Below are positions 2,522-26,893 of a stretch of DNA of 32,000 nt, piece after piece. Under the pieces are notes generated by a model. It did no database searches and had not been told where the DNA came from. It saw only the letters and a program-made list of their open reading frames with translations. Positions within the stretch are counted from its first letter, which is position 1. Each line of letters starts with the position of its first letter. Both the position numbers and the translations under genes were made by a program. The DNA comes from Vibrio vulnificus CMCP6 (GTDB lineage Bacteria; Pseudomonadota; Gammaproteobacteria; Enterobacterales; Vibrionaceae): assembly GCF_000039765.1 (NCBI RefSeq), contig NC_004460.2, forward strand, positions 1,470,001 through 1,502,000, given 5' to 3'.

Positions 2522-4138
2522 ATGATACGTTTAACTGAACTTCGACTTCCTCTCGACCATGAGGAAGGCGCGCTTCTCGAAGCCATTACCGCCAAGCTCG
2601 GCATTTCCGCAGAGCAGGTTCTTTCTTTTTCCATGTTTAGACGTGGTTACGATGCTCGTAAAAAGACCAACATCCAGTTGATTTACACGCTGGATATTGA
2701 AGTGGCGAATCAAGACAAGTTGTTAGCGAAGTTCAGTAACGATCCCCATGTTCGTGAAACGCCGGACATGGAATACAAGTATGTGGCTCAAGCGCCAGCG
2801 AACCTCACTGAGCGCCCAATCGTGATCGGTTTTGGCCCTTGTGGCTTGTTTGCTGGCCTTGTGTTGGCGCAAATGGGTTTCAACCCAATCATTGTTGAAC
2901 GCGGTAAAGAGGTGCGTGAGCGTACCAAAGATACCTTCGGTTTTTGGCGTAAGCGTACGCTGAATCCGGAGTCAAACGTACAGTTTGGTGAAGGCGGTGC
3001 GGGCACCTTTTCTGACGGTAAACTTTACAGCCAAGTGAAAGATCCTAATTTCTACGGCCGCAAAGTGATCACCGAATTCGTTGAAGCGGGCGCGCCAGAA
3101 GAGATCCTCTACGTGAGTAAGCCGCACATCGGTACCTTTAAGTTGGTTACGATGATCGAAAAAATGCGCGCGAAAATTCTTGAGCTCGGCGGTGAGATTC
3201 GCTTTAGCACGCGTGTTGACGATATCCATATGGAAGATGGCCAAATCACGGGCGTGACGCTGTCTAACGGTGAAGAGCTGAAATCTCGCCATGTGGTGCT
3301 CGCTGTCGGTCACAGTGCGCGCGATACCTTTGAAATGTTGCATGAGCGCGGCGTTTATATGGAAGCGAAGCCGTTCTCTGTCGGTTTCCGTATCGAGCAC
3401 AAACAGTCGATGATCGACGAAGCGCGTTTTGGTTCAAACGCGGGCAATCCAATTCTCGGCGCGGCAGATTACAAACTGGTGCACCATTGTAAGAATGGCC
3501 GCACGGTTTACAGCTTCTGTATGTGTCCGGGTGGCACGGTAGTAGCGGCGACCTCTGAAGAAGGCCGCGTTGTGACAAACGGCATGAGCCAATACTCACG
3601 TGCTGAGCGTAACGCCAACAGTGCGATTGTGGTGGGCATCTCTCCTGAGATCGATTACCCGGGCGATCCGCTCGCGGGTATCCGTTTCCAGCGCGAGCTT
3701 GAATCCAATGCTTACCGTCTTGGTGGTGAAAACTACGACGCACCTGCACAGAAAATTGGTGACTTCCTAAAAGGTCGCGATCCAAGTGCTCTTGGTGACG
3801 TGGAGCCATCATTCACGCCAGGTATTAAACTGACGGACCTTGAGAAGGCGTTGCCACCCTTCGCTATTGAAGCGATCCGCGAAGCGATTCCCGCGTTTGA
3901 TCGCAAGATCAAAGGTTTTGCGTCTGAAGACGGTTTGCTCACCGGTGTGGAAACGCGTACCTCTTCTCCTGTGTGCATCAAGCGCGACAAAGAATACCAA
4001 AGCGTTAACCTCAAAGGTTTCTACCCAGCGGGTGAGGGTGCAGGTTATGCTGGCGGTATCCTTTCTGCGGGTATCGACGGCATTAAAGTGGCCGAAGCCG
4101 TTGCGCGTAGCATGGTGGCTCAGCTAGAAAACGCCTAG
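2522..4138 (+). CDS. FAD-dependent oxidoreductase of uncharacterised function (COG2509-like)
   Basis: 538 aa. Rossmann dinucleotide motif IVIGFGPCGLFAGLVLAQ and C-terminal FYPAGEGAGYAGGILSAGIDG motif, both typical of this family. Confidence 0.85.
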   Translation: MIRLTELRLPLDHEEGALLEAITAKLGISAEQVLSFSMFRRGYDARKKTNIQLIYTLDIEVANQDKLLAKFSNDPHVRETPDMEYKYVAQAPANLTERPIVIGFGPCGLFAGLVLAQMGFNPIIVERGKEVRERTKDTFGFWRKRTLNPESNVQFGEGGAGTFSDGKLYSQVKDPNFYGRKVITEFVEAGAPEEILYVSKPHIGTFKLVTMIEKMRAKILELGGEIRFSTRVDDIHMEDGQITGVTLSNGEELKSRHVVLAVGHSARDTFEMLHERGVYMEAKPFSVGFRIEHKQSMIDEARFGSNAGNPILGAADYKLVHHCKNGRTVYSFCMCPGGTVVAATSEEGRVVTNGMSQYSRAERNANSAIVVGISPEIDYPGDPLAGIRFQRELESNAYRLGGENYDAPAQKIGDFLKGRDPSALGDVEPSFTPGIKLTDLEKALPPFAIEAIREAIPAFDRKIKGFASEDGLLTGVETRTSSPVCIKRDKEYQSVNLKGFYPAGEGAGYAGGILSAGIDGIKVAEAVARSMVAQLENA

Positions 4139-4157
4139 TTGAAACGAAGTGAAATAG

Positions 4158-4188
4158 AAAAAGCAACTCCGAAAGAGTTGCTTTTTTT
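4158..4188. terminator. bidirectional rho-independent terminator
   Basis: A5 run, then GCAACTC (4163-4169), loop CGAAA, GAGTTGC (4175-4181), then a T7 run. It sits between convergent genes. Confidence 0.75.
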
Positions 4189-4203
4189 GTCGATTTTATT
4201 TGG

Positions 4204-6369
4204 TTAGAAGCCGTAATTCACGTTGAGCTCGACGGTTTGCTCCGCGCCAAACCAGCAGTTGGTCTGGTTGTAGCATGAGTAATATTGCTCATTGAACAGG
4301 TTGTTCACCACCAAGTTAACTTGCGCGCCATTGAGTGAATCACTCGCGCTGCCCAGGTCGTAACCAAGCGAGAGGTCAGCGACCGTGTACGATGGCACCT
4401 TGCCTTGGGTGTTGGTAGCATCCATTTCCATTTCGCCCACATAACGCACACCACCACCAATACGAGCACCACTTAAAGCACCGGAAGTGAGGTAGTAGTT
4501 CGTCCAAAGATTTGCGCTGTGTTTTGGCACATAAATCGGTGTCGTTCCGACAAGCGTGGCATCGGTGGCTTTTTTCACTTCCATATCAAGGTAGGTGTAA
4601 GAGGCCAGCACATCCCAGTTATCAGCCAGATAGGCTTGCCCTTCAAGCTCGACACCTTGAGACGTTACTTCGCCCAATTGGATCTTTGCACGGAACGTTG
4701 GGTCGTTAGGGTCGGCGGCAATGGAGTCAAATTTGGTAATGTTGAAGTAAGACGCGGTCAACGTGTTGGCCATGTCTGCAGACATGTACTTAAAGCCCAC
4801 TTCGATCTGCTCGCCCGTTTGCGGTTTCAAGCTCTTGCCGTTGATGTCGGTGCCTGCCGCGGGTTCAAAGCTGGTGGCATAGTTGGCAAAGGGTGACAGG
4901 CCATTGCCAAGCTCATATAAAGCACCAACACGATAGGAGAACTGGTTGTGATCGGACGTTTCTTTGCCATCATACGTTGGCGCAGTACTTGTCTTATCAT
5001 CGTGGGATTTGAACAGATCGTAACGTCCGCCTGCCAGCAAAATCAGTTGGCCGTGGCGTATTTGATCTTGGAAATAGACGCCCAGCTGTTCAAAGCCAAT
5101 ATCGTGGCGCTCTGAATAGACTTCGTTGAGTTGGCTTTTGTCTAACAGATTGTTGTTTGGTTGATAGGCATTGAAGGTATAAAAAGCAGCGTTGCCAGCG
5201 AACTCTTTGTATGAAGAATCCCCATCGAGATCTTGGTAATCGACGCCAACCAGCAAGTTGTGCTGCCAATTGCCCATCGTCACTAGACCAGAAAGCTGGT
5301 TGTCTATCACCACACTCTTGTAACTTTCATCGGTAGTATAGATATTTCGAGACAGCGCACCCGTCGCCGCTGTAAAGCCGGTATCAAGGTGATAAGTGTT
5401 CTCTTGGTACAACGAGGCATCGGTATAACGGGCATTTTGTAGAAATGACCAGTTGTCATTGAACTCGTGATTGAGCTTATAGCCAAGCATGAGTATGTCA
5501 CGCTCGAAGGTACTCCAATTGGTATCTCCCATCGAGACCGAAGGCGATTGTCTTTTCACCACTTCAACAGGCATGGAAGAGTTGATGCCCATGGCGGGAT
5601 CGTTCTGATAGTAAAGATTTACGTTGATCAGAGTGCGATCGGTTACTTGCCAGTCGAGAGACGGTGCGATGAGATAACGTTCTTCATCGGCACCGTTGAC
5701 TTGGCTATCTTGCTTACGTGCCATGGCCACCAGTCGGTAGGATAGGTTGCTGTCACCGATTTGCCCGGCAGAGTCCAGCGACGCTTGTACAAGATGACGC
5801 GAGCCCGTTGCCAGCCCTACCGATGTGCTTTGTTCCTGTTGCGGTGATTTGGCAATGATGTTGACCATGCCGCCCGGAGGCATGGTTCCGTAGAGCACCG
5901 AGGTTGGGCCTTTAAACACTTCTATTTGCTGAATTGCGACTGGGTCAATTTGTGGATGCAAGTTCCAGCCTGCTAAGTAAGGCAAGATCAAACCATCGTA
6001 ATAGTTCTGGTTGTTTGTCTCAAAGCCGCGGATAGAAAAGTTGTCGTACATGGTGACCGCAGCACCTTTTTGTTCCGTCACTACGCCCGGAGCATAGCGC
6101 AGGGCTTCATTGACCGATTTAACACCGCGCTGATCCAGCAGTTCTTTATCAATGATCGTCACACCTTGTGGTGTCTCCTCGGGCTCCAACGCCGTTTTGG
6201 TCGCCGTATTGCGATAGACCTTGCCAAGCACCGTAATGGTTTCAAGTTGGGTCGTTTCAAGCTGAGCGTTTTCGATGCTGCTTTGCTCGGCGGCAACAAG
6301 AGGAGTGGTAAACGTAGCCATGATCGCAAGCGCGATAGAGGAAGTTTTAAATGGAGTTGTTGTGTTCAT
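4204..6369 (-). CDS. TonB-dependent outer-membrane siderophore receptor (hydroxamate/FhuA-FhuE-like class)
   Basis: Signal peptide MNTTTPFKTSSIALAIMATFTTPLVAAEQ, TonB-box-like ETITVLG, plug and barrel motifs, and a terminal aromatic residue (...NVNYGF). Start moved to the ATG at 6369, which gives a normal signal peptide. Confidence 0.9.
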   Translation of the reverse strand: MNTTTPFKTSSIALAIMATFTTPLVAAEQSSIENAQLETTQLETITVLGKVYRNTATKTALEPEETPQGVTIIDKELLDQRGVKSVNEALRYAPGVVTEQKGAAVTMYDNFSIRGFETNNQNYYDGLILPYLAGWNLHPQIDPVAIQQIEVFKGPTSVLYGTMPPGGMVNIIAKSPQQEQSTSVGLATGSRHLVQASLDSAGQIGDSNLSYRLVAMARKQDSQVNGADEERYLIAPSLDWQVTDRTLINVNLYYQNDPAMGINSSMPVEVVKRQSPSVSMGDTNWSTFERDILMLGYKLNHEFNDNWSFLQNARYTDASLYQENTYHLDTGFTAATGALSRNIYTTDESYKSVVIDNQLSGLVTMGNWQHNLLVGVDYQDLDGDSSYKEFAGNAAFYTFNAYQPNNNLLDKSQLNEVYSERHDIGFEQLGVYFQDQIRHGQLILLAGGRYDLFKSHDDKTSTAPTYDGKETSDHNQFSYRVGALYELGNGLSPFANYATSFEPAAGTDINGKSLKPQTGEQIEVGFKYMSADMANTLTASYFNITKFDSIAADPNDPTFRAKIQLGEVTSQGVELEGQAYLADNWDVLASYTYLDMEVKKATDATLVGTTPIYVPKHSANLWTNYYLTSGALSGARIGGGVRYVGEMEMDATNTQGKVPSYTVADLSLGYDLGSASDSLNGAQVNLVVNNLFNEQYYSCYNQTNCWFGAEQTVELNVNYGF

Positions 6370-6399
6370 AGTGTCCCTAAATACCAATGCATACTTAAT

Positions 6400-6418
6400 G
6401 GTAGTAATTCTCATTTGC
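6400..6418 (-). promoter_or_regulatory. candidate Fur box upstream of the receptor gene
   Basis: The minus-strand sequence GCAAATGAGAATTACTACC matches 13 of 19 positions of GATAATGATAATCATTATC. It lies 31 nt upstream of the receptor start. Confidence 0.45.
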
Positions 6419-6512
6419 ATTGTATTGGGCAGCTCAAAAGATAGTTAACAATTTGGTGCAACTTCAACACAAACTTAAAGTCACTTGTTGATATACATGA
6501 GCTTGGATAACC

Positions 6513-7454
6513 TCATACTTTTTGGATCGGTACCCAGTACTCCATTTCAGCATTGAGTGAGTTGGGGTGATAGTCAGTGGGGTAGACTTCCAGTTCATAA
6601 CCATCTATGCCGCGATAGCCAGAATTTGGCAGCCAATGAATAATGAACCATTCCAGCGTTTTCGGAAGTCGCTCAATCGGGCCTTTGTGTTTTACGATCG
6701 CGTAAGTTTGTTGGGGTACTGCCAGCGTTTCGAGTTGATCGGAAATCAAACTGGGCAGTTCTGGAAGGGATATGTTCGAATCAAGTTCGATACCTGCCCA
6801 ATACTTGATGTGGCTACCATCGAAACTCGCTTGAGTTACATCCACGACACCAAGTCTTCGGTTCATTAATGGCGGAAGGTTTGTGGCCGCTTCTTCAAGG
6901 TTTTTCCAAAGCAGAGGGACGACTTGTGCGAAATTGGGCTTAAGAGAAAATAAGCCATTCATTTCCCCACGAACCCCTTTCAGCAAAAACGCCTCTTTGG
7001 TGTCGACTTTCACTTCAACAAACGAGCTTGCATTGATGCCTGCGTGATTAATTTCTGATATTTCGATGGGTTTCTTTAGGCCAAAGCGTTGCGCTTGCTT
7101 GCGATAGAGGCGAGGGCTGTAGCCAAACAACTGCTTGAATGCGCGGCTAAAGGCGATCTCGGAGTTAAAGCTAAGGGAAAGGGCGATATCAATGACTCGC
7201 TGATCCGTATCCAACAGCATTTCAGCGGCAGTGCTCAGTTTCAATTCACGTACATAGTGCGCGACGGTTAAGCCCGTTTCCGCTTGAAAGACGCGTTGCA
7301 ATTGCCAGCGTGACCAGCAACTTTGTTCCGCAATTTCTTCCAGAGACAGCGGCGCATCAAGGTTGTTATGAATGAACGACAACACCTTGCTGATGCGATT
7401 GAATGTCGATACAGATCTGTCTCTACTTTGTGCTGTTGCCACAATGAATACCAA
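6513..7454 (-). CDS. AraC-family transcriptional regulator with a GyrI-like effector-binding C-terminal domain
   Basis: N-terminal AraC HTH (LSLEEIAEQSCWSRWQLQRVFQ ... FNSEIAFSRAFKQLFGYSPRLYRK) followed by a C-terminal domain of about 180 aa. There is no ATG near the 5' end, so the start is a TTG (7454) or GTG (7442) and is uncertain. Confidence 0.85.
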   Translation of the reverse strand: MVFIVATAQSRDRSVSTFNRISKVLSFIHNNLDAPLSLEEIAEQSCWSRWQLQRVFQAETGLTVAHYVRELKLSTAAEMLLDTDQRVIDIALSLSFNSEIAFSRAFKQLFGYSPRLYRKQAQRFGLKKPIEISEINHAGINASSFVEVKVDTKEAFLLKGVRGEMNGLFSLKPNFAQVVPLLWKNLEEAATNLPPLMNRRLGVVDVTQASFDGSHIKYWAGIELDSNISLPELPSLISDQLETLAVPQQTYAIVKHKGPIERLPKTLEWFIIHWLPNSGYRGIDGYELEVYPTDYHPNSLNAEMEYWVPIQKV

Positions 7455-7522
7455 GCATACGGATTGAATTGTACCTCAACCATGAGGGTGGCATCAGAGT
7501 ACAACTGTTAAGTCAATCAAAA

Positions 7523-7541
7523 GAGAATGGTTATCATTTTG
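7523..7541. promoter_or_regulatory. candidate Fur box in the divergent araC-like / fhuF-like promoter region
   Basis: GAGAATGGTTATCATTTTG matches 14 of 19 positions of the Fur consensus GATAATGATAATCATTATC. Confidence 0.5.
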
Positions 7542-7614
7542 CACCGTATTGTTAAGTTTTACAATTCCTGTTGCGTTAAGGTATTGGCCAACTCACACTC
7601 GATATTAGTTGTCT

Positions 7615-8370
7615 ATGCGCCCAGAATGGCTCAAACGTTTTTGGTTTCGTCCACCTCCACCCGCTATTTATCAATTAATTTTCACGCACTCGAAGCAGGT
7701 TTCCCCCTATTTAAAAGGCTCATTCGGAGAGTTGCCGAAAGCGTGTATCTTGGTCGGAAATCCAAACAGCACTGCCATCATACAGAGCATTTATCACCAG
7801 CTTACGCAGGCTAATCCAGAAGCGGGCAGCAGTTACTGGTTAACGCGTACTTGGGACTTGCTCTGTTGGCAACCTATCTATCTCAGTTTTCTCTCCATCT
7901 ATGGGTTAAAGTCGTTGCCAGATTTTGCGCACTTTGGCCAGTTCCAGCATCGTGGCTTTATTGCGGGATACCGCTTTGCCTCTGAAATGCACTGGCATGG
8001 CGAGCCGGAGGTATTGGTCCCGAGAGCTGGTGAGCAGTTATTAATTTTGTTTGAGCAATACCGTCAACAAATCAACCACTGGACACGAATTCGCCCCGGA
8101 TTTAGCAACCACTTGCTCGCCGATTTGATTTTAAGTTGTCTGATCAAGCTTCAAACCATGAGACCTGAACTCAACAATGGCTATATCGAGCAGCAAGCGA
8201 AACTTTGGTTGGATGCGTTTCATTTATCTGACAAACACTTAGCGAGTCTCATCCAAGAGGAAACTGAAGGCAGGCTCAAACACATTAGGATGAGCTGTTG
8301 TTTAGCATACAAGTGCCGCAACGGAACCCTCTGCCAAGATTGCCCCAGACTTTCCACGAACAAACGTTAA
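7615..8370 (+). CDS. FhuF-like ferric-siderophore reductase, (2Fe-2S)-binding
   Basis: The C-terminal motif CC-x10-C-x2-C (MSCCLAYKCRNGTLCQDC, nt 8296-8343) is the FhuF-type 2Fe-2S signature. First ATG is at 7615; the track uses the TTG at 7609. Confidence 0.8.
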   Translation: MRPEWLKRFWFRPPPPAIYQLIFTHSKQVSPYLKGSFGELPKACILVGNPNSTAIIQSIYHQLTQANPEAGSSYWLTRTWDLLCWQPIYLSFLSIYGLKSLPDFAHFGQFQHRGFIAGYRFASEMHWHGEPEVLVPRAGEQLLILFEQYRQQINHWTRIRPGFSNHLLADLILSCLIKLQTMRPELNNGYIEQQAKLWLDAFHLSDKHLASLIQEETEGRLKHIRMSCCLAYKCRNGTLCQDCPRLSTNKR

Positions 8371-8680
8371 AGGCTTGTGAGCTGGGGGAATGCCAGTGTT
8401 TTGGTGATCGACTCTATCACGTTGAGTTTGAAAGGGGCGAGGAGGTGAATGCTGGTGCCTATTATTTAATGCGAGTCACATGAAATCTACAAAATAGTTA
8501 CTTTCACAGGTGACTTAAGTACGTCTCATTTTTCTGAATGAAATGAGCATTTGATCTGAGGCTGTGAATTTTTAATTTAGTATTGATATTTGCAATGACA
8601 AGCCTGTTTGACAAATCCATAAAACTGAATGCGAATGTCATTAAAGGGCTGATGGTGATTTTTATCAGAGGAAAAATATC

Positions 8681-9496
8681 ATTATTAAGTATCTTATTGA
8701 TGGTTTTAGAGGAAAACCCAATTTTGTAAGCAGAGCTCATGCTCGATATCGAGTTGATGAGCACCTCTATGAATTCTCCTTTCCCGATAATTACTCTAGT
8801 TTTAAATACTATCTTCAGGAAACGAACTTAGACGTACTTAACGACAGTGCCGATCCCAACTTTTTTGAGCATAAAGTTGATCTGGGTTTCTTCTCATATC
8901 GATTTCACAACGTCATTATCAACCCTATCGATCTCTATAATAGCCAAGGCTTACTGCTAGTGATCTTGAGGCTTAAAAAAGTGCCACAATCATTTGATGG
9001 CATTGAATCGTTAAACGCTGTGATAGAACAAGAATATCTAGACTTTTATCATGATCCTGTACCAGTAGAAAGAACGTTGCGTGGTCGGCATACCGAGGAT
9101 ATGAATCACGCCTCTGAATATGCAAAGAAAAGATGGGAGGATTATTCGGATGATGAGGATAAGAAATCAAGAGATGCCTATATTTTAGGGAACTACATGA
9201 GGGCCTATCCGCCAATAAAATGTACATCTATTACACTTGGTAAACATACATATTCTAAGTACGTTGAAGGTGATATTAACTACAAACATATTTTCCAACG
9301 AGTGTACAACCTTCCGCTCAAAGACAACTATATGTTGAGCTTTTTGTTTAAATATCGTTTAGAAGGCGAAGCGTCTAAGAAAAAATTCCGAAAGTGGCTT
9401 CTTTCTTCGGATGAAACGTTTGAACATAAAGTCCTTGAAACGCTCGAGATATCTCGTTTGGTCGATCCCCAGTTAAACGCTATTTTCGCTAAGTGA
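8681..9496 (+). CDS. orphan protein, paralog A of a tandem pair; the full-length frame has no canonical start codon
   Basis: The track ORF (8960..9496) starts at an internal GTG. The same frame stays open back to 8645 and aligns residue for residue with the N-terminus of paralog B (DGFRGKPNF, SFP-NYSSF, LGF-SYRF-NVI-NP, NSQGLLLVI). A GAGGA Shine-Dalgarno at 8668-8672 is followed by ATC (8678), ATT (8681) and ATT (8684). There is no ATG, GTG or TTG before 8960. Confidence 0.6.
   Translation: MIKYLIDGFRGKPNFVSRAHARYRVDEHLYEFSFPDNYSSFKYYLQETNLDVLNDSADPNFFEHKVDLGFFSYRFHNVIINPIDLYNSQGLLLVILRLKKVPQSFDGIESLNAVIEQEYLDFYHDPVPVERTLRGRHTEDMNHASEYAKKRWEDYSDDEDKKSRDAYILGNYMRAYPPIKCTSITLGKHTYSKYVEGDINYKHIFQRVYNLPLKDNYMLSFLFKYRLEGEASKKKFRKWLLSSDETFEHKVLETLEISRLVDPQLNAIFAK
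9347..9417 (+). repeat. 71-nt near-identical segment, copy 1 (partner at 10179..10249)
   Basis: 70 of 71 nt are identical between the copies, with a single A/T difference at 9391/10223. The rest of the two genes is much more diverged at the nucleotide level. The segment encodes FKYRLEGEASKKKFRKWLLSSDE. Confidence 0.85.
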
Positions 9497-9506
9497 TAGA
9501 TATATT

Positions 9507-10349
9507 ATGTTTATTAAAAACTTTCGAGATGGTTTTAGAGGTAAACCTAATTTTGAAAGATTAGAACTAGCTCAATATAAAATAGATAATTATTTCTACG
9601 AGTGCTCATTTCCAAGCAATTACTCTAGCTTTGTCTATGAGAGGGAGTGTGTGTCTTTACCTATATCTAATGATGCTTTTGTTAATGATGGCCATGAAGA
9701 CATTGTTCATCTTGGTTTTGTGTCCTATCGATTTAGCAATGTCATTAAAAATCCTTTACTTCCATGCAATAGTCAGGGTTTGCTACTTGTGATCGTAAGA
9801 ATAAAACAAGTAAAAGAAAAAATTGATGATGTTGAATCCCTTGGTCGTATTCTTGAAAAAGAGTATGTTGACTATTATCACGACCCAAATCCAGATCATA
9901 AAAGCCAGCGCGGAAGGCATACGGAGGATATGGAAAATGCATATAGATACGCTAATAAAGTTTGGGGGAATTTACCAGATAGTGACGATGATTCTATAGA
10001 AAGAAATGACTATCTGCTTGGTTCGTATCTGAGGTCATATCCGCCAATAAAATGTGAATCTGTGAAAATAGGAAAATACGGTTATTCTAAGTATGTAGAG
10101 GGGAACATCGATTATAAAAATACCGTTAGAAGATTCTATAATTTGCCTATTAAAGATAACTATATATTGAGCTTTGAGTTTAAATATCGTTTAGAAGGCG
10201 AAGCGTCTAAGAAAAAATTCCGTAAGTGGCTTCTTTCTTCGGATGAAACCTTTGAGCATAAAATACTCGAAACATTGGATATTTCTCGTTTGGTGGATGC
10301 CTCTACTGAGAACGAGATCGCGTTCATCTCAAGCCAAGGTAAGCAGTAG
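9507..10349 (+). CDS. orphan protein, paralog B of a tandem pair (280 aa, soluble, no signal peptide)
   Basis: ATG ORF starting 10 nt after the paralog A stop. By eye a bit over half of the residues are identical to paralog A over the full length. No family recognised. Confidence 0.7.
   Translation: MFIKNFRDGFRGKPNFERLELAQYKIDNYFYECSFPSNYSSFVYERECVSLPISNDAFVNDGHEDIVHLGFVSYRFSNVIKNPLLPCNSQGLLLVIVRIKQVKEKIDDVESLGRILEKEYVDYYHDPNPDHKSQRGRHTEDMENAYRYANKVWGNLPDSDDDSIERNDYLLGSYLRSYPPIKCESVKIGKYGYSKYVEGNIDYKNTVRRFYNLPIKDNYILSFEFKYRLEGEASKKKFRKWLLSSDETFEHKILETLDISRLVDASTENEIAFISSQGKQ
10179..10249 (+). repeat. 71-nt near-identical segment, copy 2 (partner at 9347..9417)
   Basis: Same comparison as copy 1. 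The offset between copies is 832 nt. Confidence 0.85.
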
Positions 10350-10371
10350 ATTCGGCACATGGTTATGTTTC

Positions 10372-10392
10372 GGGGCTCATTGAGCCCCTTTT
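10372..10392 (+). terminator. rho-independent terminator after paralog B, abutting the norR stop codon
   Basis: GGGGCTC (10372-10378), loop ATT, GAGCCCC (10382-10388), then TTTT. The norR stop codon begins at 10394. Confidence 0.7.
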
Positions 10393-10393
10393 G

Positions 10394-11926
10394 TTACTTA
10401 ATACCTAATCGCTTGGCTAGACGATGAAGGTTGCCACTGTCGAGCTCTAGTTGCCTTGCGGTGGCGGCCCAGTTGCCTTGGTTAGACTCTAATGCTCGTA
10501 AGATAAGTTTTTTTTGAAAGGCGTCGGTTGCCTGTTTCAAACCGATGTCGCTGTGAATTTCGTGTTGAGCTTGCGAGGCTGCAACGGTTGGCATCATGGG
10601 AGAAGTCGGCGTTTTGATGTCGAAATCTTGCGAGATCAGTTCGATGTCCATTTGCGGCGTGCGCGCTTTGGCCAAAACGGCGGCGCGTTTTATGACATGC
10701 TCCAACTCGCGTACATTGCCCGGCCAGTGGTACTCCCTAAGCTCTGCGACCAGAGAAGGGGAGAGCCGAACGCTGTGTAAGCCGAGTTTGCCTCGGACTT
10801 GTTCAGCAAAAAATCCGGCTAGCAAAATCACATCCTCTTCGCGCTCGCGTAGGGGTGGCACATGCAACGGAAAGACACTGAGCCGGTGATAGAGATCAGC
10901 ACGGAAACGCCCCGCTTTGACTTCCTCATGCAGTACTCGGTTGGTTGCGGCGACGATACGCGTATTAACGCGAATATGACGATCATCACCAACGCGTTGA
11001 ATGTCGCCATATTGCAGCGCTCGCAATAGCTTGGCTTGTAGCTCTAACGATAATTCACCCACTTCATCGAGGAACAGCGTGCCACCATCGGCTTGCTCAA
11101 ATTTCCCTTTGCGGTGGCTGATGGCGCCAGTAAATGCCCCCTTGATGTGACCAAAAAGTTCGCTCTCCGCTACCGATTCCGGCAGCGCTGCACAGTTGAG
11201 GTAAACCAAGTTGTTTGACGCTCGGTCAGAACGATGATGAATCGCATTGGCGACCAGCTCTTTGCCCACTCCAGTTTCGCCCATGACCAGCACAGACAGC
11301 TCGGTGTTGGCGACCGCATCAATCTGATCTTGCAGTGTTCTCATCCCCTGTGAGTTACCGATGATCTCATTACTGAGCGTGCGCTTCTCGGCGTAAGATT
11401 CACGCGGCAAGCTGGCTTGGGTTTCCAACTGTTCCAAAAGCAGCGCGGTATGCAAGCCACCGGCGGCCAACGCACTGATAAAACGCAATTCTTGGTTTTT
11501 TAGCTGATCAAATTGGTTTGGGTCTAACGCATCGATGGTGATGGCACCAATCAGTTGGTCATCAATCAGCAATGGTAAACCAATGCACGAGTGAACGTGG
11601 AGTTTGCCTTGGTGGTTGGTGATCAGGCCATCGTAGGGATCGGGCAAAGTGCTTTCAGAGGGAAAGCGCACAATGTCTCCTGCTCGCGCGATGGCTTCCA
11701 AGCGAGGATGCTGTTCAATGGAGAAGCGTCTGCCAAGAACTTCTTTGGCCAAACCATTGATTGCTAACGGCTTAAAGTGTTGATCTTCAAATAAAAGCAG
11801 CGCAGAGGAGTCGCAATTGAGTACGTCGCGAATGGTGGTGAGCAGGGTATCGAATCGCGCTTGGCGTGTGAGCGCAGAGTTGAGGTCCTGAGTGATGTGC
11901 AACCACTGGGCGATAAGCGAAGTCAT
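10394..11926 (-). CDS. norR: NorR, NO-responsive sigma54-dependent transcriptional activator (GAF, AAA+ and HTH domains)
   Basis: N-terminal GAF domain. AAA+ motifs [12 protein letters not shown] and GAFTGA (the sigma54 contact loop). C-terminal Fis-type HTH. Divergent from norVW. Confidence 0.92.
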
Positions 11927-15219: not shown

Positions 15220-16416
15220 TTACTTGATTCGGCTGAAGGTGAAATTCTCATCTGAGTTAGTAAAGTTGAGGCTTTCATTGTCTGTTACCGTGACAGTTGC
15301 GCTAAACATGGGGCTATCTTTATCATATAAGCCGCCCGGACCGTCTGCTTCGCTAGTGATGCTGGTGACGGTGAACACACCACCATTGAGGCTAAAACTA
15401 CCAAATTCGCCGGATGTGGCCATAACCGCTTCACCATTGTAGGCTTCTTGGTTATTGCTGTGCACAATCACATATTGATTATTTGGTAGTATGGTTAAGA
15501 TGTTATCGCTGCTAATGTCATCTTCTCTCAAGTACCAAGCACCCACCATGGCATTACTGCTGTCGGTGATTTTGCTAAATTGAACCTGCTCACCGGCTTC
15601 ATCAGCGAAAGTGATGTCTAGAGTCGTTTGTGTGGCCTGAACTTCGAGAGTGATTGAGCCAAAGTCGTCTGCTAATCCGCCGGAGTTATCCGATTCACTG
15701 GTCACGTTAAGCGCCAACATTTGCGTGGCAGGATCGTAGGTATAAGTCCCGTATTCTGCCGAGCCCGCAGGTTGGTCGCCATCGTCAGGAATGTCGGAAT
15801 GTTCGTGCACTATGATGTAGTTGTTATCGTTGAAAAAGGTCAGCACATTGCGCTTTCCTGCGCCTTCACTCAATAACCAACTGCCGGTCAATTGGCCTTT
15901 TAAGGTATCGGTAAAGTGAGCCTGAGCGTCCTCTTCGGTGACTAAGGTTTTACTTATGCTGGTTAAAATGGCGCTAGCATCTGCGTCAAAGCTATCACTG
16001 CCGACATCTAATCCTGTGCCGACAAAAGCATCCTTACTGGCATCGCTAATGGTGATGCCATCAGAGAGATCACCGTTTTCGTCTAGGCTTTGCAGCAACT
16101 GCAAAATGTTAACTGTAGTGGTGGTTGCGAGTCCGCCACCGATATCAGCTGGCGTCACTTGAGCAGCTGCTTTGACGGCTGGAAAGGTGAGATCGCCAAG
16201 GTAAAAGGTGACCGTTTCACCTTCTAAATATGTAAATTTGCCGCCTTCTGTGGTCACACCTTCACTAATGGTTGCGGTGCGATAATTCATGCCGATAACG
16301 GGACTATCTAGAAAGACACCCGTTTTGGTTTGTGGTGTCGGGGTAGATGAATCGCTACTGCCGCCGCAGCCAGCCAAAGCAAGTGCCACACATCCTGTTA
16401 GTAGTCGTATTTTCAT
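15220..16416 (-). CDS. lipoprotein of unknown function with two tandem C-terminal repeat domains of about 108 aa
   Basis: Lipobox LALAG-C (Cys17) after MKIRLLTGCVA. GGAG Shine-Dalgarno 5 nt upstream of the start. Internal duplication of aa 176-284 and aa 290-398, sharing G-W-L, NN-Y-IVH, EYG/EFG, VTSE/ITSE, GGL and FSKI/FSRI. Confidence 0.8.
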   Translation of the reverse strand: MKIRLLTGCVALALAGCGGSSDSSTPTPQTKTGVFLDSPVIGMNYRTATISEGVTTEGGKFTYLEGETVTFYLGDLTFPAVKAAAQVTPADIGGGLATTTTVNILQLLQSLDENGDLSDGITISDASKDAFVGTGLDVGSDSFDADASAILTSISKTLVTEEDAQAHFTDTLKGQLTGSWLLSEGAGKRNVLTFFNDNNYIIVHEHSDIPDDGDQPAGSAEYGTYTYDPATQMLALNVTSESDNSGGLADDFGSITLEVQATQTTLDITFADEAGEQVQFSKITDSSNAMVGAWYLREDDISSDNILTILPNNQYVIVHSNNQEAYNGEAVMATSGEFGSFSLNGGVFTVTSITSEADGPGGLYDKDSPMFSATVTVTDNESLNFTNSDENFTFSRIK

Positions 16417-16572: not shown

Positions 16573-16611
16573 TTTTTGCGCAGTTGACTGCTTCTAGGTT
16601 GATGGGTGGAT

Positions 16612-17736
16612 ATGAGTCAAGTTGATCAGATTGATATTGTAAAACAGATTTACAGCACCATTGAAAAGCCAGAATTATGGCAAGAGGTGTTGGTCCGCCT
16701 GAGTGAAGTATTAGGGTCTTCGCACGCATTTATTGCTAGCCGATCGAGTGTTGATCATTCGCCGTCTCGGTTTGTTGCCCATGGCTTTGAATCTGGCCAT
16801 TTTGAAACCTATCAAGAGCATTTCTATAAAGTAGATTTGTGGACGCAGGGATTGGCACAGCACGATGCCAACCAGTTTCATGCTAGCCATTTGGTTTGCA
16901 ATGATAAGGACTTTGTTGGTTCCGAAATTTACTCGGATTTTGCGAAGCCGGCGGCAATCAGAAATTCAATTGGCTGTTTACTCGCTAAACCGGATAGCCC
17001 ATTGATCACCGAAATTGCGTTTATGTCAGGGCCTGACACGGCTTACTATTCTCAGCAGCAGGTGGCGGCTGCCAATGCGTTTCTTCCGCATATTGATCAC
17101 GCTTTGGGAATGTCACTGCGTATGCAGCAGGCCAACGCGGCAGGCGCTCAAGATGCGTTACTGGATGTGTTGCCTGAAGCCATTTTTGTTTGTGACCACC
17201 ATGCTGAGCTGCGTTACTTGAATGCATCGGCTCAAGTTTTATTGTCTAACAGCACGTTGTTTCAATCGTCGACTTTCTTTTCACGTCGATTAAGCTTCGC
17301 TTCAGCGCAGACAGATGCTCAATTTAAACTCGGTTTAAATCAATCCGCCGCTATCCTTGGCGCAGAGTTTGATAAGCGTTTTTATGCTTGGGATAAGCAT
17401 ATTGTTTATCGAGTGACATTAAAGCCTTGGTTTTACCAAGTCGTGACACCGATTGGACCACACAATGTCGCTTGTTGTTTAGTGGTGGTGCAAGCTTGCG
17501 CGAGTCGGTTAAAAATTCATCCTCAAGAAATCATGTCTTTGTTTTCATTAACCTTAGCGGAAGCGGAAGTGACCAGTTTACTTTGCTCTGGCTCTTTGGT
17601 TGATGAAATTGCCGTGCTACGTGCTGCAACCAGCAACACGATTCGACAGCAGATTAAAGCGTGCCTAGCGAAGACCGCAACCCGTAATCAGGCTGAACTG
17701 GTTGCTAAAGTCATTCGGAGTTTTACTCTGAGTTAG
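16612..17736 (+). CDS. LuxR/GerE-family HTH transcriptional regulator with an uncharacterised N-terminal sensor region
   Basis: C-terminal LTLAEAEVTSLLCSGSLVDEIAVLRAATSNTIRQQIKACLAKTATRNQAELVAKVI is a GerE-type HTH. First ATG is at 16612; a GTG lies at 16606. Confidence 0.8.
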   Translation: MSQVDQIDIVKQIYSTIEKPELWQEVLVRLSEVLGSSHAFIASRSSVDHSPSRFVAHGFESGHFETYQEHFYKVDLWTQGLAQHDANQFHASHLVCNDKDFVGSEIYSDFAKPAAIRNSIGCLLAKPDSPLITEIAFMSGPDTAYYSQQQVAAANAFLPHIDHALGMSLRMQQANAAGAQDALLDVLPEAIFVCDHHAELRYLNASAQVLLSNSTLFQSSTFFSRRLSFASAQTDAQFKLGLNQSAAILGAEFDKRFYAWDKHIVYRVTLKPWFYQVVTPIGPHNVACCLVVVQACASRLKIHPQEIMSLFSLTLAEAEVTSLLCSGSLVDEIAVLRAATSNTIRQQIKACLAKTATRNQAELVAKVIRSFTLS

Positions 17737-23623: not shown

Positions 23624-25483
23624 ATGACCAACCTGATCGAACCCGAAGTCATCTGCTTAGATCTGAACGCCAACAGCAAAGAAGAAGTGCTGATTGAATT
23701 GGTGGAGTTGTTGGATAAAGCGGGGAAATTGACCGATAAACAGCAATTTTTAAAGGATATTTGGCTAAGAGAAGAGATTGGCAATACCGGTTTTGAAGAG
23801 GGAATTGCCATTCCCCACGCCAAAAGTCACGCTGTTGCCTTACCCGCTGTGGTGGTGGGGATCAGCCGCCAAGGGATTGATTATGGCGCGGAAGATGGTC
23901 AGCTTTCCGACGTGTTTTTTATGCTCGCCTCCCCCGATGGCGAAGATCATCACCACATTGAAGTGTTGGCACAAATCTCCAGTAAATTGATTGAAGAGGG
24001 TTTTGTTGAGAAGCTCAAAGCCGCGGAAAATGTCGATCAGGCGCGAGCGTTGTTTGTGGACCACAACGGTGCAAACACCACGCAAGGGCATGGCATGGGT
24101 GAGTATGTTCATCAGCCGCTTAGCCCGATGGCGCAACGCGTCGCACGTATTAAGGAGCATCTGTTGTTTGGCACCTCTCATATGATGCCGTTTATTGTCG
24201 CGGGTGGGGTGCTACTGTCGCTTTCTGTAATGATCACCGGACATGGCGCCGTGCCAGAGCAGGGAGTATTAGCGGACATCGCGCAAATGGGTATTGCTGG
24301 CCTCACCTTGTTTACCGTGGTACTTGGTGGTTACATCGCCTATTCCATGGCAGACAAACCGGGTTTAGCGCCGGGGATGATTGGCACTTGGATTGCGGTC
24401 AACCAATACCATACGGGCTTTTTAGGCGCGATCATTGTGGGCTTTTGGGCGGGGTTTGTGGTGCGTCAGCTGAAAAAAATCGAGCTTCCCGACAGCATGA
24501 GCTCACTCGGCTCCATTTTCATCTATCCTCTGGTCGGAACGTTCATCACTTGTGGCGCGATCATGTGGGTGATTGGCTCTCCTATCGCCAGCAGCATGTT
24601 ATGGCTCAATCAATTTCTGGCTTCGATGGCCGATTCTGGCAAAGTTGCTTTAGGCGCAGTGCTGGGAGCGATGACCGCGTTTGACATGGGCGGGCCAATC
24701 AACAAAGTCGCCACGCTGTTTGCCCAAACGCAAGTGAACACCCAACCTTGGTTGATGGGCGGGGTCGGCATTGCAATTTGTACCCCACCATTGGGGATGG
24801 CGCTGGCCACGCTGTTGTCACCCAGTAAATTCAAACGTGATGAACGTGAGGCGGGTAAAGCGGCCGGCATTATGGGCATGATTGGCATCAGCGAAGGGGC
24901 GATTCCGTTTGCAGCGGCGGATCCCGCACGTGTGCTGCCGGCAATCATTGCTGGTGGCATTGTCGGCAACGTGATTGGCTTTCTCTTCCAAGTACTCAAT
25001 CATGCGCCTTGGGGTGGCTGGATTGTGCTTCCTGTCGTTGATGGAAAAATTGGCTATATCGTCGGCACGATTGCTGGTGCCATGACCACGGCGCTGATCG
25101 CCATTGCTCTGAAGAAAACCGTCAATGAAGACGAGAATTCGCCAGGCGATACACTGGCATACTCTTCGGTAGTGGGGGAAGGCCAAGCCGATATTCTCGC
25201 CGTCACTTCGTGCCCTTCTGGTGTTGCGCATACTTTCTTGGCCGCGAAATCGCTGGAAAAGGCGGCATGCCTGCTCGGAGTGAAAATCAAAGTGGAAACG
25301 CAAGGCGCCAACGGCATCATTAATCGAATTACTGCCAAAGATGTCCAAAGGGCCAAGTTGGTGATCTTCGCCCACGACGTCGCCATCAAAGAACCTGAAC
25401 GCTTTAAGCACATTAAGGTCATCGACGTCACCACCAAAGATGCAATTTTGAATGCCGCGGCATTGATGCAGATGAAAAAGTAG
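23624..25483 (+). CDS. fructose-family PTS permease, EIIA-EIIC-EIIB fusion (substrate unknown)
   Basis: EIIA GIAIPHAKS. EIIC LLFGTSHMMPFIVAGG ... AFDMGGPINK ... GISEGAIPFAA. C-terminal EIIB AVTSCPSGVAHTF. Start placed at the ATG at 23624 (MTNLIEPEV...), which aligns with the other EIIA N-termini. Confidence 0.9.
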   Translation: MTNLIEPEVICLDLNANSKEEVLIELVELLDKAGKLTDKQQFLKDIWLREEIGNTGFEEGIAIPHAKSHAVALPAVVVGISRQGIDYGAEDGQLSDVFFMLASPDGEDHHHIEVLAQISSKLIEEGFVEKLKAAENVDQARALFVDHNGANTTQGHGMGEYVHQPLSPMAQRVARIKEHLLFGTSHMMPFIVAGGVLLSLSVMITGHGAVPEQGVLADIAQMGIAGLTLFTVVLGGYIAYSMADKPGLAPGMIGTWIAVNQYHTGFLGAIIVGFWAGFVVRQLKKIELPDSMSSLGSIFIYPLVGTFITCGAIMWVIGSPIASSMLWLNQFLASMADSGKVALGAVLGAMTAFDMGGPINKVATLFAQTQVNTQPWLMGGVGIAICTPPLGMALATLLSPSKFKRDEREAGKAAGIMGMIGISEGAIPFAAADPARVLPAIIAGGIVGNVIGFLFQVLNHAPWGGWIVLPVVDGKIGYIVGTIAGAMTTALIAIALKKTVNEDENSPGDTLAYSSVVGEGQADILAVTSCPSGVAHTFLAAKSLEKAACLLGVKIKVETQGANGIINRITAKDVQRAKLVIFAHDVAIKEPERFKHIKVIDVTTKDAILNAAALMQMKK

Positions 25484-25510
25484 CCAACGACACGGCTGTT
25501 ATTAGGTGCG

Positions 25511-26893
25511 TTAACAGGATTGGGTTATTGCTGCAGCGAGCAGACTCAGCTCATCTTGCACTTCTTGGGTTAATTCAAACCCAATGTTGATGCGCAGGCA
25601 GTCGTTGTAGAGCGACAACGTACTGAACAGTTGCCCTAAGCGGATATCGATCCGGTTCTCTTCGAGCAACGCGGCGAATTGGCTCAGATTCAAACCAGGA
25701 ACTTGCAGCCAGAGCACCATGCCTCCTTGTGGGTGACTGATATTCACTTTACTTGGTAGCCGCTCAGACAAAAAGGCGAGATAGGCTTGTCGTAAGGACA
25801 ACAGCTTGCTGCGACGGCGCTTTAACTGCTTAGCGTAGTGGCCCGTTTCGATAAAGTCGGCAATAGCTAACTGGATCGGTAAAGAGACGCCAAAACAGGC
25901 TGCACTGTGCTGTTGCTGATAGCGCTCCATGAACCGTCCGGGTAGACACCAGCCGAGACGATAACTGGGCGACAAACTCTTAGAGACAGAGCCACACCAA
26001 AGGATGAAACCATCTTGGTCATAGCATTTCGCTGGCAGAGGTGTGTGCTCAGAATAGGACAGTTCTAAGTAGACATCATCTTCAATCATCGGCACTTGAT
26101 AGTGATTAGCAAGCTCGGCCAGCTTCTGTTTTTGCTGCGCCGACATGGTGATCCCCTGAGGGTTCATGTGCGAGGTGCAAAATACGCCCGCTTTTACGAC
26201 GCCTTGTTGCAAATGCGCTTCCAACTGTTGCAGATCGATCCCATCGTCCAAAGAGGGGATTTCGACGATCTGTCGTCCCATTTGCCCAAGCAAATCCAAA
26301 ATTCCACTAAAACAAGGTGAACTAATCGCGATGGTATCACCGACTTGGGTACAGGCTTCAAGTGCAGCCTTGATGGCTGGCATGCAGCCTGAGGTGATGA
26401 TCAACTCAGCCGGATTGATATGCAGCCCAAGCTTGGCGAAATGATCGCTCAGCGCGTGACGCAAAGATGGTTCCCCACGGGTGTTCGGATATTGGTTGAG
26501 GCGTTTTCCTATCCGTTTACTCGCACGTCGAAAACTACGCTCCAACTCGTTTAACGCAGTTTCATCGATATTGGTGCTGGAAATGCCGAGCGGCCCATTA
26601 TGTGGGGAGTGAATCGCGAAGCTTTGATTGACGGTTGAGACCTGGCTGACAAATTGCGCCCATTCTGGCGTTTTGTGTTTGCTGCGCTGTGGTGCAACGT
26701 AATAGCCCGCTTGCGGGCGAGCATGAATCCATCCTTGGGATTCTAATTCCTGATAGCAACTGACGGCAGTCGACATACTTACGCCCTGCTGCTTAGACAG
26801 CTGACGGAGCGAAGGCATTCGGTTTCCTTCTGCAAGTTTTCCTGTTTCGATTTCACGAATAAACTGATTTGCCAACGCTCTATAAATGCTCAT
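25511..26893 (-). CDS. MocR/PdxR-type regulator (GntR wHTH fused to a fold-type I aminotransferase-like domain)
   Basis: N-terminal MSIYRALANQFIREIETGKLAEGNRMPSLRQLSKQQGVSMSTAVSCYQELESQGWI is a GntR HTH. A PLP-enzyme-like domain of about 350 aa follows (...SVSKSL...). Start set at the ATG at 26893. Confidence 0.9.
   Translation of the reverse strand: MSIYRALANQFIREIETGKLAEGNRMPSLRQLSKQQGVSMSTAVSCYQELESQGWIHARPQAGYYVAPQRSKHKTPEWAQFVSQVSTVNQSFAIHSPHNGPLGISSTNIDETALNELERSFRRASKRIGKRLNQYPNTRGEPSLRHALSDHFAKLGLHINPAELIITSGCMPAIKAALEACTQVGDTIAISSPCFSGILDLLGQMGRQIVEIPSLDDGIDLQQLEAHLQQGVVKAGVFCTSHMNPQGITMSAQQKQKLAELANHYQVPMIEDDVYLELSYSEHTPLPAKCYDQDGFILWCGSVSKSLSPSYRLGWCLPGRFMERYQQQHSAACFGVSLPIQLAIADFIETGHYAKQLKRRRSKLLSLRQAYLAFLSERLPSKVNISHPQGGMVLWLQVPGLNLSQFAALLEENRIDIRLGQLFSTLSLYNDCLRINIGFELTQEVQDELSLLAAAITQSC

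Follow-up and report, generated by a model that had tools for sequence, protein, structure and literature searches.

Two tandem genes of no recognised family occupy an AT-rich islet between a FhuF-like gene and norR in Vibrio vulnificus CMCP6, and the question that they raise is what the bacterium could use such a pair for. The islet lies within a stretch of 32,000 nucleotides of contig NC_004460.2 (assembly GCF_000039765.1, positions 1,470,001 to 1,502,000 of the forward strand), hereafter the window, in whose numbering coordinates are given below unless a locus is named; its two genes are called here gene A and gene B. An earlier note, made from the letters of this DNA, had proposed that they form an immunity or antitoxin array of undescribed function in a compositionally foreign islet, and comparative genomics supports this proposal by gene linkage, by armed strains at the same site, by arrays and by partner-less copies. 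Elsewhere the family to which A and B belong is tied to a preceding gene encoding a hydrolase-like protein of about 400 amino acids (aa), hereafter the partner, which we regard as a candidate toxin; a strain or locus that carries it is called armed, and the family gene next to it is its cognate. That A and B are antidote genes to this partner is, as a general claim, probable. The narrower reading, which we favour and to which we give a probability of about 0.5, is that they are orphan antidote genes directed against toxins that would be delivered by armed relatives, interbacterial immunity included.

Linkage of the family to an upstream partner gene

Do homologs of A and B adjoin a toxin gene elsewhere? 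The earlier note took both for orphans, which did not hold: an exhaustive profile search found the family across marine Gammaproteobacteria, with full-length members (260-285 aa) from Shewanella, Pseudoalteromonas, Agarivorans, Rheinheimera and Alkalimonas. In these five genera the preceding gene is always one of about 392-396 aa with no Pfam assignment, overlapping the family gene or lying 3 nt from it, and five Vibrionaceae (Vibrio sp. YIC-376, V. diabolicus, V. rotiferianus, Photobacterium nomapromontoriensis and P. aphoticum) likewise have the partner, detected by tblastn at 44-47% identity, immediately upstream of the family gene. In the census of loci, to which a metagenome scan contributed 72 further ones, an intact partner is followed directly by an intact family gene on the same strand in 68 of 72 cases. 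In the remaining four no family gene is recognised by the hidden Markov model (HMM) of the family: one partner runs off its contig, and three precede an unrecognised same-strand open reading frame (ORF) of 251-288 aa. Apart from the partner that runs off its contig, no intact partner is without a downstream ORF. Loss is asymmetric, as 10 loci hold an intact family gene with a partner that is disrupted or reduced to a remnant in the interior of the contig, and 12 loci hold a family gene with no partner. In the 14 modules that were curated, the junction of the two genes ranges from -8 to +21 nt.

The partner and the family gene diverge together. Over the 14 modules their identities co-vary with r = 0.94 (Mantel test, 0/5000), and it is the family gene that is the more divergent in every comparison (91/91 pairs; mean identity 32% vs 53% for the partner). 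As to V. vulnificus, the ratio of non-synonymous to synonymous substitution rates (dN/dS) of two of its partner alleles is 0.10 and that of their cognates 0.26.

Family genes are also found in arrays. Where a family gene directly follows the partner (n = 89), 75 loci hold one copy, seven hold two, six three and one four, which makes 14 loci with 2-4 copies downstream of the partner; partner-less arrays consist of three copies (L008-L011) or, in V. harveyi (L003), of four. The genes downstream of a divergent clade of partners are family members by HMM (E ~1e-23), and, since the fourth gene of the V. harveyi array belongs to the cognate clade of these divergent partners (46% identity), arrays mix cognate types. 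It is the linkage, the asymmetric loss, the faster evolution of a second gene that seems to be non-enzymatic (see below) and the arrays that give the system the signature of a toxin and its antidote.

The junction between the FhuF-like gene and norR, whose comparison across related genomes had been proposed in the earlier note, is polymorphic, being armed, two-copy or three-copy in different strains, and is not universally conserved. In V. vulnificus GCA_044537305.1 (L028) it holds the partner allele P0152 (408 aa) and a 280-aa family gene. By blastn the flanks of the variable segment in the window are 98% (7001-8391) and 97.5% (9528-11000) identical to those of this strain and the interval between them is unrelated, gene A and the partner being alternatives there (Table 1); no remnant of the partner was detected in the window by tblastn. 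In another armed strain, GCA_003258475.1 (L037), the partner allele P0151 adjoins norR and the 279-aa gene downstream of it starts with ATG. The alleles P0151 and P0152 are 79% identical, and their cognates 63%. Gene A shares 93.5% identity with the cognate of P0151 and gene B 94% with that of P0152, so that the window holds tandem cognates of two candidate toxin alleles circulating in the species and neither of the toxins. Other V. vulnificus strains have three copies, namely a startless A-type, a B-type and a third type (P0003).

Polymorphism at a fixed place is seen at two more sites. A second site of the window, empty there, is occupied in the V. vulnificus locus L033 by 2269 bp with a divergent partner, P0260 (403 aa), and a 259-aa family gene, which replace positions 25478-25517. 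In the harveyi clade, the site is laid out as a resistance-nodulation-division (RND) pump gene, an 88-aa ORF, the variable place and a haloacid dehalogenase (HAD) hydrolase gene, and it occurs in three states: P0144 followed by a gene of 279 aa; P0258, a divergent partner of 37% identity, followed by a gene of 272 aa; and a lone gene of 277 aa, 96% identical to the cognate of P0144. The V. diabolicus orphan, conserved throughout that species, shares 96% identity with the cognate that V. parahaemolyticus has at this site. Each of the three known sites is flanked by convergent genes and free of mobility genes. The 88-aa ORF, which has no Pfam match, precedes the harveyi-clade site whether the latter is armed or orphan (L012-L016, 5345-5611; L029 and L034, 7060-7589).

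Several minor observations concern the surroundings of the modules. At five loci the partner is followed by a same-strand ORF of 215-288 aa that the family HMM does not recognise (L081, 2803-3663; L086, 2387-3142; L091, 8108-8974; L103, 1905-2603; L107, 286-933), and such ORFs may represent more divergent antidote families. A third co-oriented gene of 370 aa, with no match to the family, stands after the module in one metagenomic lineage (L025, 7834-8946; L027, 3194-4306). In Photobacterium aphoticum (L006, 5684-6510) a family copy split into pieces of 163 and 104 aa lies upstream of an intact partner-family pair, which suggests an earlier immunity gene, now decayed, on the opposite flank of the toxin.

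The islet and the state of its two genes

In its general layout the islet is as the earlier note had described it, namely an AT-rich segment between the fhuF-like gene and norR with two head-to-tail genes 10 nt apart, no flanking mobility gene and a terminator abutting the norR stop. The GC content is 0.365 at 8392-10392 against 0.489±0.025 for non-overlapping 2-kb windows elsewhere (z = -4.9), and at third codon positions it is 0.37 in gene A and 0.31 in gene B, against 0.53-0.56 in the FhuF-like gene, norR and norV. The islet consists of two same-strand reading frames with a spacer of 10 nt, and no mobility gene is present at it. On the left, the flanking gene matches FhuF_C of Pfam with E = 2.5e-4 (21.2 bits vs a cut-off of 20.5); on the right, the norR orthologue has the GAF and Sigma54_activat domains. 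The terminator-like element, a GC-rich hairpin (10372-10388) with a T-run, adjoins the stop codon of norR (10394). Two further ORFs of about 380-400 aa, at 15220-16416 (-) and 16606-17736 (+), lie in the window downstream of the norVW region and have no Pfam match at E <= 0.01.

Table 1. Features of the islet, its flanks and the second site, in window coordinates
Feature	Coordinates	Strand	Basis or remark
FhuF-like gene, left flank, core, host-like GC	7609..8370	+	Pfam FhuF_C
Variable segment: gene A in the window, ~408-aa partner in L028 (L028 7718-9240)	8392..9527	.	
Shine-Dalgarno-like AGAGGA (8667-8672), followed by ATC (8678), the counterpart of ATG in the paralogs	8667..8680	+	
Gene A, family member, 272 codons, no canonical start	8678..9496	+	frame, alignment with paralogs
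84-nt block in gene A	9347..9430	+	81/84 identical to 10179-10262
Gene B, intact family member, 280 aa	9507..10349	+	
Matching 84-nt block in gene B	10179..10262	+	81/84 identical to 9347-9430
Terminator-like hairpin GGGGCTCATTGAGCCCC and T-run, separating the stop codons of gene B and norR	10372..10397	+	
norR, right flank, core	10394..11926	-	97.5% identical to L028
Empty second site, 40 bp, between convergent PTS EIIABC and GntR/aminotransferase-like genes	25478..25517	.	

Gene B is a chimera of the sequences found in the three-copy strains: from nt 1 to about 650 it follows their copy 2 (97-100% identical) and from about 660 to 843 their copy 3 (95-100%), with the breakpoint at 10137-10167, just 5' of the 84-nt block that it shares with gene A. 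Outside this block the two genes are about 70% identical at the nucleotide level. The block is likely to serve as a substrate for gene conversion or for unequal recombination that alters the copy number.

The state of gene A is less simple. The earlier note set its start at 8681, where the codon is ATT and not a start. The frame is open from 8645 (the upstream stop is at 8642-8644), and its first ATG, GTG or TTG is the GTG at 8960, which would leave 178 aa; lacking a canonical start, the gene is annotated publicly as a hypothetical protein of 171-186 aa from this GTG. According to the alignment of copy starts, the codon that corresponds to Met1 of all paralogs is an ATC, preceded by AGAGGA. 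V. floridensis and four further assemblies of V. vulnificus have the identical ATC allele, at homologous positions of L001 and L008-L011. A simple promoter scan of the plus strand revealed no sigma-70-like site upstream of gene A.

The full frame of 272 codons, however, remains open despite the missing start. The dN/dS of gene A is 0.26 against L037 and 0.27 against the equally startless allele of V. floridensis; the latter comparison departs from neutrality (p = 8e-4), with 14 synonymous changes and 15 non-synonymous ones, of which 7 and 6, respectively, fall into the 94 codons upstream of the GTG. The dN/dS of gene B against its cognate is 0.25. Judging from these ratios (0.25 for B, 0.26-0.27 for A), the orphan copies are maintained under purifying selection. 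Gene A could use a non-canonical start (ATC or ATT) or could be a young pseudogene, and it may be expressed poorly or not at all.

The partner and the family protein

The partner is a basic protein of about 400 aa (pI 9.5) with a conserved N-terminal domain of about 130 aa and a putative alpha/beta-hydrolase-like domain at the C-terminus. Twenty-six diverse members share 62 invariant columns, among them H268-S269-Q270-G271, N327-P-x-D330 and S365-P-H367, which we read as a putative Ser-Asp-His triad in the order of alpha/beta-hydrolases, with a nucleophile elbow. Matches to DUF900 (16/26 members, best E = 2e-4) and DUF7379 (10/26) are below the curated cut-offs. Sub-threshold matches of the N-terminal domain to ParE_toxin occur in 4/26 members, the best with E = 1.7e-3, and in one JGI record the partner is labelled RelE. 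Profile searches of the PDB with the whole partner and with its N-terminus returned chance matches only, and PADLOC gave no match for A and B, for distant members of the family or for the partners.

As for the family, the products of A and B are 60% identical over 264 aa (E = 9e-114), which bears out the paralogy asserted in the earlier note. Equally, neither product has a signal peptide, a hydrophobic N-terminus or a segment of transmembrane grade (the maximum of the 19-aa Kyte-Doolittle window is 1.28-1.44), as had been stated. The pI of the gene A product is 6.6 and that of the gene B product 5.95. The absence of a known family was the third property claimed for the pair, and it stands: A and B have no match in Pfam, PADLOC or PHROGs at E <= 1, their sole NCBIfam match is of chance level (TIGR04553, E = 0.033, 13.6 bits vs a cut-off of 250), and the search for sequence relatives in the PDB with the family profile gave chance matches only.

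The AlphaFold2 (AF2) model of the gene B product, built on an alignment of 24 sequences, has a pLDDT of 89 and a pTM of 0.86 and predicts an antiparallel sheet with a three-helix insert. Foldseek found no match to this model in the PDB at E <= 1e-3; the weak matches that recur are PsbP/CyanoP, MTC28, LpqN, Mog1 and Tsi3 (best E ~1e-2, TM-score 0.23-0.49). Across 24 diverse members only P36, L112, G136 and F225 are invariant, and because the conserved residues are limited to proline, leucine, glycine and phenylalanine we read the family protein as a probable non-enzymatic binder. No helix-turn-helix (HTH), ribbon-helix-helix (RHH) or AbrB Pfam domain was found in this globular protein of 272-280 aa.

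Literature searches on the accessions, on the name "Mg-dependent DNase", on DUF900 and on type VI secretion system (T6SS) effectors of V. vulnificus yielded no description of either family, and two mentions of a "Mg-dependent DNase" in V. vulnificus papers concern other loci. With no curated model and no description in the literature found for either, the partner and its cognate appear to be two new protein families of a known, toxin-immunity type.

Competing readings and known systems

According to the reading that we favour, a complete module would consist of a first gene for a basic hydrolase-like toxin of about 400 aa and a second, translationally coupled gene for an acidic family protein of about 280 aa, which would bind the cognate hydrolase and block its activity. 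Different V. vulnificus strains have different alleles of the module between the FhuF-like gene and norR; the strain of the window would have lost the toxin gene, or never had it, and would keep the protection without the weapon. Homologous recombination via the conserved 3' block would have assembled and reshuffled the tandem cognates, and the resulting array would protect against the toxin from armed relatives. We infer here the toxicity of the partner, its physical neutralisation by the family protein and its delivery between cells; the gene linkage, the replacement of one allele by another at one site, the asymmetric loss, the joint divergence and the arrays are observed.

Several results weigh against such an interpretation. 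All Pfam matches of the partner are below threshold, and no secretion or trafficking Pfam domain or delivery signature was found on it. No recurrent gene of T6SS, contact-dependent inhibition (CDI) or Rhs systems appears among the neighbours in about 35 contexts (top 25 neighbour families), these neighbours being mostly housekeeping genes, and some of the distant modules are situated in defence or mobile islands, a position that fits an intracellular role equally well. As to gene A, its comparison with the nearest startless V. vulnificus alleles gives 1 synonymous and 5 non-synonymous changes, and, taken with the lack of a canonical start, this indicates that the gene is possibly decaying.

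The alternative that survives best, and that we consider possible though rather unlikely, is that A and B are the remnant of an intracellular toxin-antitoxin (TA) system (addiction or abortive infection) whose toxin, the partner, would act solely within the cell that makes it, the antitoxins persisting as harmless or anti-addiction genes after the loss of the toxin. In reverse-order type II TA pairs of the RelE/ParE superfamily, such as HigBA, the toxin gene precedes the antidote gene and the two are translationally coupled. The module resembles them in its gene order and coupling, possibly also in the N-terminus of the partner, if the sub-threshold ParE_toxin matches and the RelE label are taken at face value; such an origin would also suit its occurrence as stand-alone islets scattered between housekeeping genes, the position of some copies beside DdmDE/BrxR, restriction-modification (R-M) genes, reverse transcriptases or an integrase, and the absence of a secretion marker on the partner. 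Besides, loss of the toxin first is the only viable route of decay for a TA pair. However, both proteins are far larger than those of classical type II pairs (3-4 times larger than in the HigBA type), the antidote has no HTH or other DNA-binding domain, a putative hydrolase domain is fused to the toxin, antidotes form arrays, the similarity to ParE finds no support in the PDB profile search, and the module was not found in plasmid and phage collections. What makes us prefer interbacterial immunity to a TA remnant is that cognates of different toxin alleles and clades stand together in arrays, both with and without a toxin, which would need repeated acquisition and retention, unusual for antitoxins, and that the orphans are conserved species-wide under purifying selection.

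It is improbable, in our opinion, that the module is a two-gene anti-phage system with the family protein as sensor or regulator and the hydrolase as effector, the copies of the window being decoys or decaying leftovers. Modules do occur in defence islands of Rheinheimera (beside type I R-M genes and reverse transcriptases) and Alkalimonas and beside a P4-like integrase/primase element, and the low GC of the islet resembles that of much defence cargo; yet neither protein matches PADLOC, the contexts are mostly housekeeping and not defence islands, and arrays of sensors without an effector have no obvious use. The asymmetry of loss, in which the partner is never found without the family gene and the reverse is common, fits an inhibitor and not a sensor.

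Still less probable is a chaperone or adaptor (Eag/DUF1795-like, with a PsbP-type fold) that stabilises or loads the hydrolase. DUF1795 adaptors belong to the PsbP/Mog1 fold class, to which the weak recurrent Foldseek matches point (TM-score 0.28-0.46), and the family gene is tightly linked to the partner; but the fold similarity is not significant, the family gene lies downstream of the partner and not upstream and evolves faster than it, and an adaptor is not expected to be retained, duplicated and diversified without its client. The last and practically negligible alternative, that the annotation is correct and the proteins are Mg-dependent (TatD-like) DNases, has in its favour the NCBI and UniRef names of the Vibrio members ("Mg-dependent DNase" or "DNAase", P0001-P0055) and a length of about 270-280 aa, the only likeness to TatD, and was rejected because A, B and 10 distant members have no Pfam match at E <= 1, TatD_DNase (PF01026) included, NCBIfam lends the name no support, the AF2 fold of antiparallel sheet and helical insert gives no TIM-barrel match in Foldseek, no His, Asp or Glu is invariant that could be a conserved metal ligand, and members outside Vibrio are named merely "hypothetical".

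Among the described systems, the T6SS loci of V. cholerae come close, as their immunity arrays formed when an effector was displaced and older immunity genes were kept (Kirchberger et al. 2017, PMC5361080). Common to both are tandem diverged immunity genes at a fixed chromosomal site of low GC, alternative toxin/immunity alleles among strains and arrays built by recombination. In contrast to those loci (PMC5361080), the present module is neither in nor near a T6SS cluster, its toxin has no known T6SS marker, the strain of the window has no toxin gene at all, and both families have no Pfam link to known effector-immunity pairs. The acquired interbacterial defence (AID) islands of Bacteroidales (bioRxiv 10.1101/471110; PMC12247911) likewise contain immunity genes without the cognate toxin, in arrays that mix types against different toxins; they are large, reside on mobile elements with recombinases and confer a protection shown experimentally, whereas the present arrays have 2-4 genes and no mobility gene and would protect by analogy. 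As for the hydrolase, Tox-ABhydrolase-1/2/3 toxin domains and polyimmunity loci were described in polymorphic toxin systems (Zhang et al. 2012, PMC3482391), where, seemingly as here, a domain of the serine-hydrolase type is followed by an immunity gene and the polyimmunity loci are homogeneous or heterogeneous. Those domains form the C-termini of large secreted proteins with RHS, filamentous, PAAR and other trafficking domains (PMC3482391), unlike the present partner, which is a stand-alone protein of about 400 aa with an unassigned N-terminal domain.

Tentatively, one may go further and suppose a new and widespread class of antibacterial weapon in marine Gammaproteobacteria, namely a stand-alone basic serine-hydrolase toxin with a RelE/ParE-like N-terminus that would enter neighbouring cells by a route without a known trafficking domain. 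Its repertoire of toxin and immunity alleles, with two hot spots in the 32-kb window, would shape kin discrimination and strain competition in V. vulnificus and in the harveyi clade. Should the toxin indeed pass between cells, it would need a secretion route that is missed by current effector-prediction markers. The analysis offers a testable function for a protein family misnamed "DNase" in hundreds of Vibrio genomes and draws attention to an uncharacterised family of putative serine-hydrolase toxins in Vibrio, Photobacterium, Shewanella, Pseudoalteromonas, Rheinheimera, Marinomonas, Colwellia and related genera. Since the polymorphism between armed and immune-only strains is natural and sits at a fixed site in V. 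vulnificus, a human pathogen, it offers a convenient marker and a simple system in which to study strain competition by experiment.

Two distant modules deserve separate mention for their neighbourhood. In the viral contigs the only match is a predicted integrative element with a P4-like integrase and primase (L038, IMG/VR UViG_637000128_000005), in which a 29%-identical partner and a family gene follow a tyrosine integrase and a large primase-like gene (2968-9823); a transfer RNA call inside this locus was judged spurious, as it lies within the primase gene. In Alkalimonas (L019, 8971-14593) the module adjoins a regulator of the BrxR type and the paired genes of DdmD and DdmE (PADLOC, E = 5e-264 and 1e-82), and the same island also holds AlpA, RadC and an integrase fragment.

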